DNA from: Kondoa subrosea
Taxonomy: Eukaryota
Direction of reading: 5' to 3'
Length of the DNA stretch: 64,000 nt
NCBI GenBank assembly: GCA_039545335.1
Contig: BCIN01000010.1
Coordinates: forward strand, 453,804 to 517,803
Shown piece after piece: positions 46,450 through 55,529 of this stretch; the stretch's first letter is position 1; every line of letters begins with the position of its first letter. A program made the position numbers and the translations under genes. The notes under the pieces are model-generated. The model was given only the letters and a program-made list of their open reading frames with translations. It did no database searches and was not told the origin of the DNA.

Positions 46450-46515
46450 AAGAAGAAGAAGAAGAAGGAGAAGAAGAAGAAGAAGAAGAAGAAGAAGAAG
46501 AAGAAGAAGAAGAAG
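46450..46515 (+). repeat. (AAG)n microsatellite, 22 units with one GAG interruption
   Basis: Directly visible in the sequence. Confidence 0.98.
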
Positions 46516-46841
46516 AACAAGAAAAGGCAGCAACAACAAATTGAGCAGCACTGGTATATCATGCTGGAAGGGATTGAACAAGAATTGAGAAAAATTGAGG
46601 AAGGAAGAGGAAGAAGGAAGTTTTGGGCACCTGACGCGTATAGGTGTTTGACATTTCACACTTTGTTTACCTTTAAGTCACCAAAAACTCGCTAAGAGGT
46701 CTTCTTTCCTTTTCTCACCTCTCTAGGCACCTTTCTTGGATTTGTCCACACTTAGCAGCACCTTCATACACACAGAAGAGTAGCGCTCACCCTCACAATC
46801 GAAATCTGTCCACACAAAAATCTATCAAAACAAACAGCAAT

Positions 46842-47634
46842 ATGTCTACCACAAGGAAAGCCAAAGGCTCCATCTTCGCTGTGCACTGCGATATGGATAT
46901 AGAAGAGCCGCAACAAGGAAGCAGCAGCGCTAGAAACATCAATGGCGTTCCTTTGAAGCGAAAACAGCATCCTTCAGCTCTAAGCAATAAAGAGAACACT
47001 TCAGCTCTCACATCTATAGCACCATCAAAGAAATCCACTCCTTTCAACGGCAAAATTCCATACGAACTCGCTTCGCCTGTTTCCAACCTCGCAGATCAAC
47101 TGTCGCAAACTCTAGGTTTCTTCGCACCTAATGATCCAGGAGCGAAACTACAGAATAAGAGGTTGAACAGTATGATGAGAGGAGAAGGAGGAAGTAAAGG
47201 AGATCCGATGAAGAAAGCTTCAAGTACTTCTGTCGTCTTCGGAAAACAGCAAGTGAAGGGGAAAGAAATGTGGAAAGCTTTGAGAGAAGAGACGGCTACA
47301 CCACCTCATTCACCTGTTCTGGCCAATGTTACGGAAGCGTATAATGGCAATGGGGGTTTCCACTTCTCGCCAATGGTAAGTTTCTTTGGCTTGTTGCTTC
47401 CTGTACTTTGACTGATATGATCAATACTAGACACCTAAACCTCAACCCTCTGATGCGTATGAGCTACCTACACCGACAGGCGGAAGGATTCTCGTCTTAC
47501 CGGATGCGGAAGATCACGCTGACGATCCAACCTCCAGCACAGTAGTGTATCAAGGATCACCAATCAAGAAGACTCGAGTGCAAAGGCCGACAATGAGACC
47601 GTTGGGCAGCAAAGCAAGAGGGCTGAGGTTGTAG
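46842..47634 (+). CDS. Hypothetical disordered protein with ABBA and KEN motifs (2 exons)
   Basis: ATG at 46842; intron 47376-47430 (GTAAGT..TAG); exon 2 is open to TAG at 47634. Confidence 0.7.
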
Positions 47635-48112
47635 CGAGAGGAAGAGAAGTCCGCTAACTCATGTAACAGGTGCAAGCTGCAAGGGGATTTAGACCGTTCT
47701 GTTTGTGCATAGACTTTGCTGCGTTGTAGTGTTGTGTGTAACATTTGCTTTTGTTCTGATACATCGCTGTGCAGCTTCACTGCTCGGCTGTTCCATACCG
47801 AGTCCAACAACTTCAACCCAATTTCCCTTTGTTAGTTCTGTACGTCCAGAAGAGGTTACATTCAGCCTGCTTTGCTACACACAGCAACGGCCTGGACTAT
47901 CTTCATCACACTAGCTAGGCGGCACGCTAGTCAGACTTGAAGTCGATCCATCCTATTGCTGTTTCGCGCTCAATAGGCAATGTCCGCTGCTGGCCTCAGT
48001 CAAATACACACACATTCTGCTACCCTTCTTTCAAGCTAAGACTCTTCATCGCCTGCCGTATTGTACTGTACAGCTGTACCCTGCTGTTCTCAGAAAGGCT
48101 TGAAAGCTCAAG

Positions 48113-50408
48113 ATGCTCAAGCTACAACAGAACTACAACGCGGCCAATGGGAACAACTCTGGCTCATCTGGCAACCAACAAAATGGCCAGCACTCCTTCT
48201 CGGGCTATAATCCTTACAATTTACCGCCCAATAATTACCACGGCCATCACGCTGGCGGAAACTTGCAACAACATGGCTATCCTAACAGCGGATCTTCCCT
48301 GCATTCGCAAACGCCTAATCCTAGAGAACGGCAAGTCCAATCTCAAGCGCAGTCCCAACCCGCACAAGCTATTTCACCAGCTTGGGCAAAGCAACTCGAA
48401 TATGCTGCTGCCTCTCGGATGGCTGCTTCACCTCATCATCACGCAAGGGTCGCACAATTGGAGAAAAGAGGTCACAACAGTTCAGCTCTGTCTATAGTTG
48501 ATCCGAAAGAAAAGCTGGTCTCGACAAGCGAAACATCTTTCATCTCTTCCTCTGGTCCACCTGGTCTCGCTCGCCCGGGTAGTGCAGTAGCTACTGCTCG
48601 GACTCTCTCACATAAGAAGACGGATTCTTTGGCCTCGGATAAATCTAAATCAGCCAGCAAAGCTTCTTCTTCACCTTCGCAATTGTCAGCATCAGAGAAA
48701 GAAACGGATGCCGGCTCCTCTTCCTGGTCAACTTTGGATATGGGAGGAATGTCACTCAAGAATCTCGCTCCAGCTCTCTTCGCCTATACTTTCTTGACCG
48801 CCCTATATATACCTCATAATTCCCTTACAACCTTACCTACAGCCTTATGTCAACTCAATCATTTGGTCCGGCTTGATGCGTCCTCAAACAAGCTCACTTC
48901 CGTTCCAGCTGAATTAGGCACTCTAACCTCCCTGCGCGAACTCTTCCTTTTCGACAACTTGATTGTCAATTTACCTCCCGAACTTGGCACACTTCATCTA
49001 CTAGACGTTCTTGGTATAGAAGGCAACCCATTGCAAGACTCATTACGAGTCATTGCGGAAAAAGATGGGACTTCAGGTCTAGTGGCTTTCTTGAGGGATA
49101 GTTGTCCAGTTCCTATGCCACCACAAGAAAGAGAATGGATCAATATCGATTTAGATGAATTACCTACAGCTGAGGATGCAGAAGACAAGAATGATGGATT
49201 CTCAGTCTTGAGTTATAATATTCTTTGCGAGAAATATGCTACAACGGCAATGTATGGTTATACACCATCTTGGGCTTTGAGCTGGGAATATAGAAAGGAA
49301 TTGGTTCTGCAGGAAGTGGTTGGCTACGAAGCAGATATTCTCTGCTTGCAAGTCAGTGGTTTCTATTTCGAAGTCGCGTTTCAAGCGATGCTGACGAATA
49401 ACCGGGCACAGGAAGTGGATGTAGAACAGTACGAAGAATATTTTGCGCACAACCTCAGCCAGCAAGATTACGATGGTGTCTACTATCCGAAATCTAGAGC
49501 AAGAACCATGTCGGGTGATGAAAGGCGGCACGTCGATGGATGCGCTATCTTCTACAAGTCAACAACGTATGTTCCGTGTCATATTCATGATTAGTGCTGA
49601 CGAAAGATGCAGTTTCGCCTTGGTTGAAGAACAGCTCATAGAATTCAGTCAGATCGCAATGCGTCGACCTGATTTTAAGAAGACTCAAGACATGTTCAAC
49701 CGAGTCATGACAAGAGACGATATCGCTGTCATTGCTTTGCTCGAGCACAAAGTGACCGGCGCAAGGTTGATTGTCGCCAATGTCCACATTTTCTGGAATC
49801 CAGAATTTAGGGATGTCAAGCTTGTTCAAGTCGCCATGTTGATGGATGAATTGGACAATATAGCCGAACGATTCTCTCGACTACCACCTCGCTTCGATCT
49901 TGCTGCCGATGCACCCTCATACAAGGAAGGAGGAGCACCAAAGATCCCAACCGTGATCTGCGGTGATTTCAACTCTGAACCTTCTTCCGGTGTATACGAA
50001 TACCTCTCGAAAGGTCGAGTATCGCATGATCATGACGATTTCGGTGATCATGTATACGGAACCTATACTTCAGATGGATTGCAACATCGGCTCAATCTCA
50101 AATCATCTTATCAATCCATCAATGAATTACCTTTCACCAACTACGTCCCTCACTTCAAAGGTGTTTTGGATTATATTTGGCATACCTCAAACACGCTCAA
50201 CGTTACCGGATTGCTTGGTGAAGTGGATCCGAATTACCTTTCGAAAGTTGTCGGTTTCCCAAATGCTGTAAGTAACCTTCCGTTCTTTTGTAGGAAATCA
50301 AATGCTAACTTTTTGTGATTGTAGCACTATCCTTCGGATCATATTTGCATTCTATCGGAATTCAAGTTCAAGCGACCTAAAGCTGCAGGTCTGGTCACCG
50401 CTCAATGA
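48113..50408 (+). CDS. CCR4: CCR4-NOT deadenylase Ccr4 (LRR + EEP domains)
   Basis: SPHHHAR, leucine-rich repeats, LSYNILCEKYA..MYGYTPSWAL, CLQEV, ICGDFNS and PSDH. Confidence 0.97.
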
Positions 50409-50574
50409 AAGGAAAGGAAGGAAGCAGGAAGAAAGTATAAGTAATGCATAGCTTCACATGTCTAGTCTAAAGTGTACTTGGAAAAAGGGGCGTAAAGAAG
50501 GTTTTTTTCATGTTTGCAACGTCAGGAGATGAAGATGAAAATGGACCAAGGGATATTTTTACGATCGATCAGAA

Positions 50575-51631
50575 TTAGGGCTCTGCACCCTCTTTTAATC
50601 TCGATAACAGAACTGATGTACATGTTCTCAAACCCGATAATTCTTTCCCACCTTCTTCAGCAAAACCTACTCCTGCCCATCGAATTTTTTGCTGCCAATC
50701 TACCAAGTATAGATAGCCTACATGCTTATTCAGCATCCCCAGTGGCTATGAGATGAAATGAGCAAGGTATTACCATTAAGAGAAGAAATGGAACTCACTT
50801 CTTTGAGCAATTCGATGTTTTGATTTGTCAGAAGATAATTCTCATGCTGTTCTAAAGGAACTTGTTTCCTCAGTGATGATAGGTACATTGAAACAAGCCA
50901 TGATTTGAGTAAGTTGTCTTGTAAATTGATCTGTCCGAACGACGATCAAGCTTGAAAGACAATTTCATTGAAAGGAAGAACTTACATTGACTATTTGGAA
51001 AAGAGGTTCAGAAGCTTGATCTTTTGCTATTGTCGGTAAGAAAGAATCGACATGTTCCTTTCCGCCTCAGCCTTAGCTCGAACAAATGGTCAACGGAGAA
51101 ACAATTTACTACAGAGATTTTGGTATTTAGAACAGCAACAAGGGAAACTTTATCTTTGAGTAGATCAGCAGTGTTCTTAGTCTCCTTATTCGCCAACGAG
51201 ATTCCTTGTATAGCAGGAAAATAGAGTGCTTTCTAGCGACACCTCACATTTTGATCAGTCCCCTCTGGTCCTCGGCAAGCGAGATTTATACGCACATCTG
51301 ATCGAATGACTGTTTCTGGAGCGATCCATAGTTTTCCTCCAGTATGCGACAATTGGCTCAAATCCTCAAAGTAAGATTTCGATAATTGCTTTGTTAAAAT
51401 CTTGCGCTCCTGTTTCCTTCCTTCTGAATCCAACAATCTTGACTTGACTGAAGGTTGTGGAGCTACTGAACTGCTGGGAGGTGTAGAAATACCTAAAGGT
51501 CGAGGTAAATAAGGTGGTCCTGCTATATTTGCTGACTTGATAGGTTTGGATTCGGTTGCGACATGTCTTGCACTAGGACTTGTCACGAGGATAGGCTCCA
51601 ACAGTCTTGCTCTCTTTGCCAAATTTTGCAT
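50575..51631 (-). CDS. ATP10: Mitochondrial ATP synthase assembly factor Atp10
   Basis: L.RPLG...PP, YF.DL......GKLWIAP, ALYFP and QINLQDNLLK.WL; presequence-like N-terminus. Confidence 0.88.
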
Positions 51632-51978
51632 GACGCCGTCGCGAATCAACGCGCTCTTGAAGAAAACGCGTTCTCATTGCCAAACAGCGATGTAAGCGAT
51701 ACTGACAGGCGACTAAATCATCGATATAACTATATGAACAGTCAATCAAGTGATTGCTCAAAAATCGCTGCGAAATGATTCTGATTCTCCAGTGATTGTC
51801 TCCTCAATTACTCTGTGCTGCCCTTACTGTACTGTATAGCATGCGGTCATGCTCAACCCCCTGACTAAATTCTCAGGTTTTGCTTCGATTGACTTCGAAT
51901 TCCGATTCCATTTTTGTATCTAGGCGCTTTGGCATGATAAATTCGAAACGGTTGTACGGCATGAGCCCATGGGCATTC

Positions 51979-51980
<2 letters not shown>

Positions 51981-52035
<55 letters not shown>
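51981..52035 (+). repeat. (CT)n microsatellite, about 27 units
   Basis: Directly visible, about 150 bp upstream of the ATG at 52184. Confidence 0.98.
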
Positions 52036-52039
<4 letters not shown>

Positions 52040-52183
52040 CCATTACTCTTATTCCGCGCTCACGTCTTGTGATCCATTCAAAATCCTCGCGGCACCGCGG
52101 ACCGTTTTTGCAATTTGCTATTCAAAGCTTTTCTAGTTCGTCCTTCCCCTTTTGCTCCCAACCATATTCTCGTTTCCTTAACC

Positions 52184-53224
52184 ATGGTATCCTATAGGAC
52201 CGCAAACGATTCTCAGCATTTCGAGGCGGTCAGTCCCTATTTCTAGATAGTTCTGCTCTCGAGAGGCAACCTTCTGACCTGTTTGCTTGCTTACTGTATA
52301 GAAGTGTCTGGCCTTTCTTCACAACCATCAGCAAGAGGATCTCAGTATGCCTGGCAATCCTTTATCACGCGAAGTGGGTTCTTTTCCCTCTTGAGAATGA
52401 TGAATCCCGCTCAATGAAATCCGCATTTGCATCAGTCTTCTGCCACAGACTGTGAAGACTCAGATGGGTTCTTCTCACCTGCTGGTCCCTCTACTGCGGT
52501 CACATCAACACAAAATTCTCCTCTCATACCTAAAGAAATTCTACTCTTTCATGACAACAACAACGAACCACAACATGATGACTCAGACGGTGATGATGTA
52601 GAAGAGGGGGGAGAACGTGCAAGTCCTTATTGGTGGAATGATCCTCAAGCTTCCTCTGTCTCTCTGGCTTCGGTTTCTTCTTCCGTCTTATCCTTTTATC
52701 GAGTTCAAACACCTCCAGCGAGTTTGTTAGATGGTTATCGCAATGATGAACATATGATGAAGTGTAAGTCCATGCCCATAAAACTTGCGCAAAGCTCTCA
52801 GCTGATCGACCTGACAGGCATTGATCTGGATTACGATGCTCGCCAATTCCTTCCTTTACCTCCTGCGCCACATCATTCTGTTCAAACGCTAGAAATTCAT
52901 GACTCACCTCATGCTGCAAAGATGGAACCTTTATCTCGTTATGGTAACGAAGCTTCAGCTTACACTTCAAAAGAAGCTCTACCTATTCACATTGAGGAGC
53001 TCAACTCTGTTATGGTCTCTCAGATGGAAGATGAAAGATTAAGCAGAAGATCAAGTAAAGCAAGTGTGGCTAGAACGAATGCTTCGCTTTCACCAGAAAG
53101 GGAAAGAAGTTCAAGTCGCAGTAGTAGTAGTACTAAAGGAGGGACGAAATTGTTCGCTGCGGTAGGCAAAGCGGTAGCGAAATTGGTTGGCAAGAAACGT
53201 TTGGCTCGATCAACTACTTACTGA
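52184..53224 (+). CDS. Hypothetical Ser-rich disordered protein with a basic amphipathic C-terminus
   Basis: A 265-aa open final exon, with two upstream exons joinable through GT-AG introns from ATG 52184. Confidence 0.6.
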
Positions 53225-54808
53225 TCGCCGACTCTTTCGTATGGGTTTCGTATGGTGGTTTCCTTTTCGTCGTTTTTCTTTTTGGTTCGGGGAAGTTGGT
53301 GCCAAAATTTGTTGCGCGGTAATACTCACATGAGCGCTTTTTGTCATTGTAACCTTTTTTCATACTTTTCTTCAAGAGCACTGGATGCTAAGTAATTTTC
53401 CATACATTGGGCATTCTGATATTGTAGTGCTTCTGAATTGCAATTGATACACGGATATTCGCTCATATCTCTTACTCGACCTGTTGACATGCACCTCTTC
53501 GCGCGATGACGAAATTTTGAAAAAAATGTACAATGATAAAGACGGAGCGATTTCATCATGGGAATAGCTAGAACGGAGAAGCAAGGTACAGGAGATCTTG
53601 CGAGTCATTATAGTTAAAGCCAGCTTTGACCAGCATGTCCTGGCATACACGAAAGCACAAGTGAAAGAAGTGCTCCAGACTGGATGCAAGGTGATCGAAT
53701 ATGATAGTGCTGAACACGCAGATAGTAAATAAGCCACAGGAGCAGAAAACCGTCGTAGTGTTGAAACGACACGACGGAACAGAGGATGGGGATGTGAGCG
53801 AGATAATCGATATCTAACAGGCCAATAATCACAACGTAGCAGTATCCATACAAAGGAATTCATCTGAGCCAGAGAGAAGCACAACACATGCAGAACCAGA
53901 ATGAAAGGAACTCGGACACAGAGCCATTGTCTCGGAAATGTCTCACAGTATGTGAGCCGTTGTGACTCAAACTAAGGGATCCTGATTCTGGTAGTACGTA
54001 TGCTGCGAAAAAGCGCTGTACTACGTCCCGCCGAGGAGATTACCGAGGAAGAGCTCGAAATTAAAAGTTGAATCGGTGAGCTTGCGTCTGGCTGACAGCA
54101 GAATAGGACGCAGTGCTCGTGTAGGCTTGCTATAAGTCTTCAAAGCTCTGTATGACTGAGACGAGCTATCTTTTGGCTATCGCGCTTCGCTGCAACAGGT
54201 CGAAAGCTCTCTTGACCTTGTGCGAGCAAGAACGTCTGCTCGCAGCCTCATTGGCCCCCAATTCATCCTAGTGAAGGCCGACCATGCCTTGCAACTATTG
54301 TAGTGGTGCTCGAGTTTCCCATTACTCTCTGCTTGGAATCCGTACACGATTCCTACTCTGGCAACTTTAATCTGCTCTCACATTGCTCTACTGCACAGGA
54401 CTGCACCAGGGCTCTCCTATCTGCTGCTGATTCCTGTCTTCTACCTCAGCGCTTCTGTCTGCTGGAGTTAGTCAATTTCGCGATGCTTTCGGTCGCGTGC
54501 CAAATCTGAGCCTGTCGAGCGCAAGGATAGACGGCAACTAAGGAGATATGCTTCTGATGTAGCACGTCGAGTATCTACATATTGAGTCCAGGATACACTT
54601 CTTTTCGCTGTTATCATGACGTTCAATAGTCTCGTTAAGGTTTCTTGCAAGTACTTGTTTGCCGCAAGTAGTGTCTCGTCTCTTACGCTTTATATACCTC
54701 TCTGTTACTACTCCTTACGTATGTCGCGATCCTCCCTGTTCCTATCCAAAACATCCAAGCCTCTTGCAATTGCAACTTCAGTCTCGACCAGTCGCTAAAT
54801 TGCATGAA

Positions 54809-55529
54809 ATGCGTGGCAACCAAGAGCACAAAACCGCGCCTTTTCTTGGTTACCCCTCTTCTCTTCTCATCACAAACTATCACTATAGAGATGGACTAAA
54901 GAGAAACACAGCTGTCGCGAGGAACCTTTATATGCTAGGCGTAAGTTCCCTGACCAATCCTTTTGCAGTTCCTATCTGACATTTCTCTGTTCAGGACGAG
55001 TCCTCCTTGAGTTTGGAGCAGCCAGCAACTCCTCAAAGCGAAACCTGTTCTTCTGAAGTATGTCTCTCCTTTTATCCCTCAGACTTCCAAGCTGATTCCC
55101 ATCTTCTAGTTGTCAGACAGATACAGCGTACAGGCCTCACCTTCTAGCTCAATCAATGAAAGCTCAGAACAATTCCTTTGGCTTGCCAAACAACCTTCTC
55201 GCTTAATTCTTCAACGCAAAGAGTCGAGCTCCGATACCTTCTCCTCTTCATCAAGCTCATCCAACTCTTCTGTCAGCCTCTACCAAGGTCCAAATACTTC
55301 GCTCTGCTCTGTCTTCACTTTAGACATGGACGAATATCCAGCTGCAAAAGACATGGATCAACTTTATCGATGCTCACCTAGAATGGAAGATCGAGTTCCC
55401 CCTATATCTGTGGCATCACCTGTTGTCAAATCATCTTCGATGCTTGTCAAAGTTGGTAAAGGGATTGAGAAGCTGGTCAAGATGAAGAACTCCACAAAAT
55501 TGGTCAGGACAGAGATCTTTGGCAAGTGA
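54809..55529 (+). CDS. Hypothetical Ser-rich disordered protein with a basic amphipathic C-terminus
   Basis: GTAAGT (54941) and GTATGT (55058) introns join in frame to ORF 55110-55529. The start is uncertain. Confidence 0.55.

Follow-up and report, generated by a model that had tools for sequence, protein, structure and literature searches.

The window, the stretch of 64,000 nucleotides that we analysed, contains a real two-exon gene for a protein of 245 residues. Its product belongs to a real, conserved and unnamed family, probably one of proteins that bind the co-activators of the APC/C. Binding of this protein to Cdh1 or Cdc20 is very probable. The core of the original prediction, a disordered protein that engages a co-activator through an ABBA motif and a KEN box, has held up: both motifs are conserved and the KEN box docks on Cdh1 in a structural model. 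Inhibition of APC/C-Cdh1 in the manner of Acm1 or Mes1 is the best single explanation, ahead of the substrate and securin readings, and we put it forward tentatively. Sequence cannot decide between an inhibitor and a plain substrate.

Gene structure and genomic setting

The product consists of 178 plus 67 residues and requires a single GT-AG intron (table 1). Candidate introns with a GT donor in the window peak at lengths of 50-59 nt. The second exon is found in a single homologue, P0007, which reads through the intron in frame. Beyond this read-through, 20 of 40 residues are identical to those of our protein, including GSPIKK-RV, and exon 2 is therefore coding. In the unspliced gene calls of the homologues, homology ends directly after the FSP block. 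Most of these calls run into the intron at this point, which supports a shared intron position and at the same time hides exon 2. A 244-residue open frame from 46677 was rejected, since it lacks a Met upstream of 46842 and continues into the intron. We also rejected the possibility that exon 1 is the N-terminal exon of a cyclin: the reading frame ends at 47634, and CCR4 follows as the neighbouring gene. Just past the stop there is a branch/acceptor-like sequence (47653-47669, +), whose sole donor is a GC at 47614, 56 nt upstream. Such sites are frequent in shuffled DNA. An alternative C-terminus or a third exon using a GC-AG intron (47614-47669) is possible with a small chance, and is not favoured.

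Table 1. Positions in the window of the gene, its motifs and conserved blocks, and two upstream sites.
Feature	Position	Strand	Remarks
Exon 1	46842..47375	+	aa 1-178; ATG at 46842
Intron	47376..47430	+	55 nt, phase 0, GTAAGT ... CTGAT (branch) ... TAG
Exon 2	47431..47634	+	aa 179-245 and stop at 47634
ABBA motif FAVHCD	46875..46892	+	aa 12-17; FxV[FYH]xD in 13/14
KEN box with Asn at P-1 (NKEN)	46986..46997	+	aa 49-52; [DN]KEN in 14/14
FNGKxP[FY]xLASP block (FxGKxPFxLxSP)	47043..47078	+	aa 68-79; ends in an SP site
QxLGF block	47106..47120	+	aa 89-93; LxF-like cyclin-docking lead
GDP block	47199..47207	+	aa 120-122; 12/14 sequences
Longest block SPVLANVTEAYNGNGGFHFSP (SP-LANVTEAY-G-GGF-SP)	47310..47372	+	aa 157-177; mean identity 0.76
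Full CDK consensus SPIKK	47557..47571	+	aa 221-225; kept in P0007
C-terminus KARGLRL*	47611..47634	+	LRL not kept in P0007
ACGCGT, MCB-like (MBF/SBF) site	46634..46639	.	208 nt upstream of ATG
GTAAACA, forkhead-like site (TGTTTAC on +)	46664..46670	-	upstream of ATG

The protein is net basic (33 K/R, 21 D/E), has a high content of S, P, K and G and contains a single Cys. It has eight SP/TP sites, one of which is the full CDK consensus. The elements that had been read from the sequence are all present, i.e. FAVHCD, SNKENT (aa 48-53), the SP/TP sites, SPIKK and KARGLRL*. AlphaFold2 models the protein with low confidence throughout (mean pLDDT 53, pTM 0.14), which is consistent with the predicted disorder. 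Pfam searches made separately with exon 1 and exon 2 gave no domain match.

The gene is present twice in the 18.9-Mb assembly, and the copies are identical. Positions 46472-54457 of the window are repeated in inverted orientation at the end of contig C10 (G000:C10:532860-540843), over about 8 kb and at 99.8% identity. The repeat includes our gene, CCR4 and ATP10; all differences lie in the inner 300 nt, and similarity persists further inward in weaker form. The end of the contig falls within a GAA microsatellite. Assembly redundancy is a more likely cause than a true duplication; the inverted repeat could also be genuine or represent a second haplotype. The reading of the gene is unaffected by the second copy. 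Within the window, a long (GAA)n microsatellite (46452-46520) lies about 320 nt upstream of the ATG and results in spurious lysine-rich open frames. Directly downstream of the gene is a CCR4-type deadenylase with LRR and endonuclease/exonuclease/phosphatase domains (48113-50318, +). Further on, two Ser-rich frames without Pfam match (52418-53224 and 55110-55529, both +) have similar basic amphipathic ends, VGKAVAKLVGKK and VGKGIEKLVKMK, and are possibly diverged paralogues.

Two short sites, ACGCGT and TGTTTAC, are found 180-210 nt upstream of the ATG. GTAAACA, the reverse strand of the latter, is a forkhead-like site. ACGCGT occurs nine times in the window (7.9 expected by chance) and GTAAACA five times (6.2 expected); the two are found together in 5 of 1274 overlapping 300-nt windows. 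Of eight cell-cycle genes of the genome, PCNA, one Rad21/Rec8-family gene and one cyclin are preceded by MCB-like sites; Cdc20 and Cdh1 are not. Cdc20 has no forkhead-like site upstream either. ACGCGT is enriched in G1/S promoters of Cryptococcus (excerpts of PMC5137879). The two promoter sites may be counted as weak, after-the-fact support for cell-cycle regulation.

Conserved motifs of the family

A search with exon 1 retrieved three relatives, with 55-59% identity, among 102 candidates. The profile built from these three matched 14 proteins at E <=0.001: one already found, 11 new true relatives and two unrelated proteins (P0015, a repeat protein, and P0019, lysine-rich) that were removed. 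Our alignment, A4, comprises the query and 13 non-redundant homologues (14 sequences, 22-65% pairwise identity); P0005, P0006, P0013, P0020, P0022 and P0023 were left out as near duplicates. With 13 such homologues, the protein is not the orphan that it had been called. All homologues are unnamed gene calls in ENA, JGI or Logan assemblies, and the 14 proteins that we looked up carry neither a taxon nor a name beyond 'hypothetical protein'. A second-round profile search recovered just six already-known members among 8000 candidates. Two metagenome scans for homologous loci (453 and 213 pattern matches) and one scan of prokaryote genomes (66 matches) yielded none that was confirmed. Since these wider scans were unproductive, the 13 homologues are a lower bound on the range of the family, and the tail can be checked in one of them.

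In Pfam, an alignment of 16 members produced three weak single-member matches, and one homologue has a sub-threshold match to Cyclin_N2 (E 0.15). PDB sequence searches with the family profile and with the peptide aa 146-178 returned chance matches alone, and the best scores in the ESM Atlas (0.79) are under the trust threshold. The Atlas match of rank 5 for P0007 is an unnamed Ascomycota cluster (239 aa, 92 members, 11% with Cyclin_N2, score 0.75). It is a lead, and may be an analogous ABBA-bearing family of filamentous fungi. The description of our protein as basidiomycete is plausible and weakly shown, because the Cdh1 exon of the genome is almost equally close to a Violaceomyces protein (73% identity) and to a Protomyces protein (72%).

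The ABBA motif always precedes the KEN box in the family alignment, at a distance of 26-65 aa. The consensus printed in PMC5717348 (excerpts), Fx[ILV][FY]x[DE], is strictly matched by 10 of the 14 sequences; three, including the query, carry a His variant, and P0014 is the sole sequence without the motif. Position 4 is Tyr in five sequences, Phe in five and His in three. The proposal that FAVHCD is an ABBA motif is thus sustained by the ten strict relatives, but the query's own His falls outside the consensus of that source. The residue before KEN alternates between D and N only, as predicted by the structural rule that Asp or Asn at P-1 stabilises the KEN box (excerpts of PMC5717348). Two homologues, P0010 and P0011, have a second strict ABBA (FKVFGD and FRVFGD) past the KEN box, where the FxGK block begins, giving an ABBA-KEN-ABBA order.

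When exon 1 is shuffled (200,000 runs), ABBA and KEN arise jointly at a rate of 3 in 10,000. Among 168 frames of at least 100 aa in the genome DNA searched, one has both, and it is our gene. Identity to the query is 63-92% in the motif columns and 17% at the 127 other positions. The ABBA and KEN columns were invariant in the search profile, which favoured hits that keep them. Because of this bias, we checked for ABBA in hits that had been matched elsewhere: P0012 and P0013 have the motif outside their single matched stretch, and P0014 has none there. The original prediction had staked itself on conservation of the motifs in orthologues, and ABBA and KEN are indeed kept where the surrounding sequence is not. 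Its suggested check that only these motifs are conserved gave another answer, as four further blocks show equal or nearly equal conservation.

These four blocks have mean identities of 0.63-0.90. QxLG is found in 14/14 sequences and QxLG[FY] in 10/14; in the query, LGF lacks the flanking LxF residues (P-3, N/E-2, K/R-1). The longest block, aa 157-177, has a D-box-like L-A-N-V core without Arg, followed by an aromatic extension, and SP sites on both sides. When placed in D-box register, it has Leu at P4 and Val or Ile at P7 in 14/14 sequences. P1 is Ser in ten, Asp/Glu in three, Pro in one and Arg in none; P6 is mostly Asn (Asp in 1/14), and P9 is Glu or Gln, never Asn. No RxxL is conserved among the 14 sequences, and exon 1 of the query has none. 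Non-canonical D-boxes occur, often with Lys at P7 (excerpts of PMC3690534), a residue not seen in this block. A P1 that alternates between Ser-Pro and acidic residues resembles a phospho-dependent motif more than a D-box. In Acm1, an inhibitory extension follows the D-box (excerpts of PMC12401543), and the aromatic run of the block could be analogous to it. A reading of LANVT as a D-box with an Acm1-like extension was set aside: it is weakened by the family residues at P1, P6 and P9, and by the Cdh1 model, which does not place the block.

The C-terminal LRL had been proposed as an APC/C-binding element. This is unsupported, since P0007, the one homologue with exon 2, ends in KPLLC. The two ends, KARGLRL* in the query and KPLL in P0007, fit an RxL cyclin-docking pattern. 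The two proteins also have in common an acidic patch in exon 2 (LPDAEDH and LPSEDH, respectively).

Co-activators, complex model and competing explanations

Among 113 WD40 matches in the genome, one is clearly Cdh1 and one clearly Cdc20. In yeast, the Cdh1 residues contacting the A motif of Acm1 include I311 and P374, and K333 binds Glu65 of Acm1 (excerpts of PMC3690534). Our comparison of the ABBA groove uses the yeast residues given there alone, and no naming of the human Cdc20 ABBA-site residues was found in the literature. At the A-motif contacts, the genome's Cdh1 has Met for I311, Pro for P374, Thr for K333, Ala for L325 and Thr for I344; three of the five positions differ from yeast Cdh1. 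Its Cdc20, aligned by eye, has Ser and Ala at the I311 and P374 positions. The hydrophobic Met and Pro of Cdh1, compared with Ser and Ala in Cdc20, lean towards a preference for Cdh1. The family never has Glu at the ABBA position matching Acm1 Glu65, where the facing K333 is Thr in the genome's Cdh1. Thr at K333 is one of two changes that weaken Acm1 inhibition in yeast (excerpts of PMC3690534).

We modelled a complex of exon 1 and a stand-in Cdh1 (the WD40 domain, from the basidiomycete Violaceomyces), without the use of alignments. The model scored 0.75, and the best of three controls 0.00. The mark that we applied is reached by 51/78 solved and 2/108 mismatched pairs of microbial proteins; for eukaryotes by 39/65 solved pairs without a like complex and 2/126 unrelated pairs, in a benchmark that leaves disordered chains outside. 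Contact agreement between runs was at least 32%, and the pLDDT of the partner was 37. Confident contacts involve aa 48-55, with KEN on the KEN site of Cdh1, and aa 10-16, which are placed against residues 187-192 of the stand-in and their neighbours. These correspond to residues 174-179 of human Cdc20, the D-box pocket. The ABBA groove is unused, aa 157-177 are not placed and the score is driven by KEN. Hence, the multimer check that had been suggested came out divided: KEN docks on its site, and the ABBA peptide lies in the D-box pocket. The latter is possibly because the stand-in Cdh1 has Ser at the I311 position. As the Acm1-Cdh1 complex is already solved (4BH6), a pass of the model speaks for a similar KEN contact and does not demonstrate binding by this copy, and KEN on the KEN site of Cdh1 is a modelled contact only.

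In the mechanism that we propose, a disordered, cell-cycle-regulated protein would use its N-terminal ABBA motif and KEN box to bind the WD40 propeller of a co-activator, most likely that of Cdh1. We infer that ABBA sits in its own groove and that Cdh1 is the preferred partner. Occupation of the degron sites would hold APC/C-Cdh1 back, as with Acm1 and Mes1, an effect inferred to go beyond degradation of the protein itself. Release could come through CDK phosphorylation or through the protein's own destruction. The SP-LANVTEAY-G-GGF-SP block may provide a third contact.

Known inhibitors are typically built in the same way, as short proteins without domains that carry two high-quality co-activator motifs, which argues against an APC/C substrate with another job. 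In the latter case, which we find somewhat unlikely, ABBA and KEN would time destruction, and the other blocks would bind an effector such as cyclin-CDK-Cks1, making the protein a CDK modulator or scaffold. It draws on QxLGF as an LxF-like dock, on the SP sites and on the RxL-like end. The four non-degron blocks, conserved and none of them confidently placed on Cdh1, fit such an effector and are left unexplained by Cdh1 binding. The inhibitor reading is also opposed by P1, which is never Arg, whereas Acm1 inhibition needs a D-box and Mes1 needs D-box and KEN. Acidic residues in place of the Ser of SP-x-L in 3/14 sequences are as expected for a phospho-switch rather than a D-box. ABBA and degrons are also present in plain substrates, e.g. 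cyclin A and Clb5 (excerpts of PMC5717348), and docking through LxF and Cks1 turns Cdc6 into an M-CDK inhibitor (excerpts of PMC6620034). However, the query's LGF is without the LxF flanks given in that source, and the F is absent in 4/14 sequences. Since Mes1 shows that a single protein can inhibit with one co-activator and be a substrate with another (excerpts of PMC3084671), the inhibitor and substrate readings can both hold.

It is improbable that the protein is the securin of this lineage, i.e. an unstructured separase inhibitor destroyed by the APC/C at anaphase. Securins lack structure, carry their degrons at the N-terminus and can be recognised only between close relatives (excerpts of PMC6690013 and PMC10317155). 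The size of the protein fits, and no other securin was found in the genome, by searches that are uninformative (Pfam model and strict pattern 0 matches each; loose pattern 65, of which 10 were inspected and none was securin-like). Motifs were taken from the same two excerpted sources, with exact regular expressions set for the present analysis. A DIE-like pseudo-cleavage pattern occurs in 1/14 sequences, and LP[EY] and NxLx(hydrophobic)E in 0/14, as counted in exon 1, with exon 2 available in two sequences only. Even E165, the Glu with the highest conservation, is replaced by Gln in 2/14, and the protein is net basic; the acidic patch shared with P0007 in exon 2 is a caveat in favour of a securin. 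Least probable of all is that the motifs are not APC/C degrons and that the conserved blocks serve an unrelated partner. Such a reading could invoke the His of the query's ABBA, where the printed consensus (excerpts of PMC5717348) has F/Y, and the invariant motif columns of the profile that seeded the homologue search. Against it, ABBA varies within its consensus (five Y, five F and three H), the residue before KEN is D or N only, co-occurrence of the motifs by chance is rare and the model supports docking of KEN.

An extended form of the inhibitor reading would make the family the third, independently evolved, fungal inhibitor of APC/C-Cdh1 after Acm1 and Mes1, and one without canonical D-box. 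ABBA and KEN would anchor it on Cdh1, the CDK-flanked SP-LANVTEAY-G-GGF-SP would be phospho-switched and block Apc10 or another core site, and QxLGF would tether a mitotic cyclin-CDK. We regard this combination as unlikely. If true, one peptide would couple CDK activity to APC/C inhibition in these yeasts.

Comparison with known systems

Homology searches miss APC/C inhibitors, which are short-motif proteins, and those in the literature surveyed come from budding yeast, fission yeast and animals. Literature searches on ABBA/KEN in fungi or basidiomycetes and on Acm1 orthologues brought up no APC/C inhibitor from a basidiomycete outside the spindle checkpoint, and these searches, together with one on basidiomycete securin, brought up nothing on such a family. 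A conserved candidate offers a concrete gene for how such fungi keep Cdh1 off from G1 to mitotic exit, and would show whether a degron-only inhibitor works without RxxL D-box. Should it be a securin or a CDK modulator instead, it would fill a different gap in the same cell cycle.

Judged by sequence, the protein is not a member of Acm1, Mes1 or Emi1. With Emi1/Emi2 and UBE2S it shares a basic Leu-rich end, RGLRL. It differs from Emi1/Emi2 in having no D-box and no zinc-binding region (no Pfam match, 1 Cys in 245 aa) and a tail other than LRRL. The Emi-like part of the original prediction is therefore dropped, as a conserved LRL tail, a canonical D-box and a zinc-binding region are all missing. 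BubR1/Mad3, cyclin A and Clb5 likewise have ABBA near other degrons, but our protein has no TPR, kinase or cyclin domain. It resembles the securins (Pds1/Cut2/PTTG/Patronus) in being unstructured, about 200-250 aa long and poorly conserved, with N-terminal degrons, and differs from them in that none of the DIE-type, NxLx(hydrophobic)E and LPE motifs is conserved within exon 1.

Mes1, the meiotic APC/C inhibitor of Schizosaccharomyces pombe, is also short and lineage-restricted and has a KEN box. Depending on the co-activator, it could act as a pseudosubstrate or as a competitive substrate, and both its D-box and its KEN box are needed (excerpts of PMC3084671). In contrast, our protein has KEN and no canonical D-box. 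In Acm1, the A motif (61-70) is followed by KEN at 98, and inhibition is abolished without the D-box (excerpts of PMC3690534). A range for Acm1 beyond budding yeast is not given in the excerpts of PMC4114781 and PMC4862756. Neither the family profile nor the aa 146-178 peptide matched the Acm1 PDB chain at E <=10, a weak test for short motifs. The likeness to Acm1 is one of build: both are small domain-less proteins with ABBA, KEN and a third conserved block in this order, and with CDK sites. Acm1 has an RxxL D-box about 20 aa after KEN, and our protein has none; the distance from KEN to the third block is 87-154 aa in our family and about 21 in Acm1. Our family also has no conserved Pro at KEN+3, and carries the extra FxGKxPFxLxSP, QxLG and GDP blocks.
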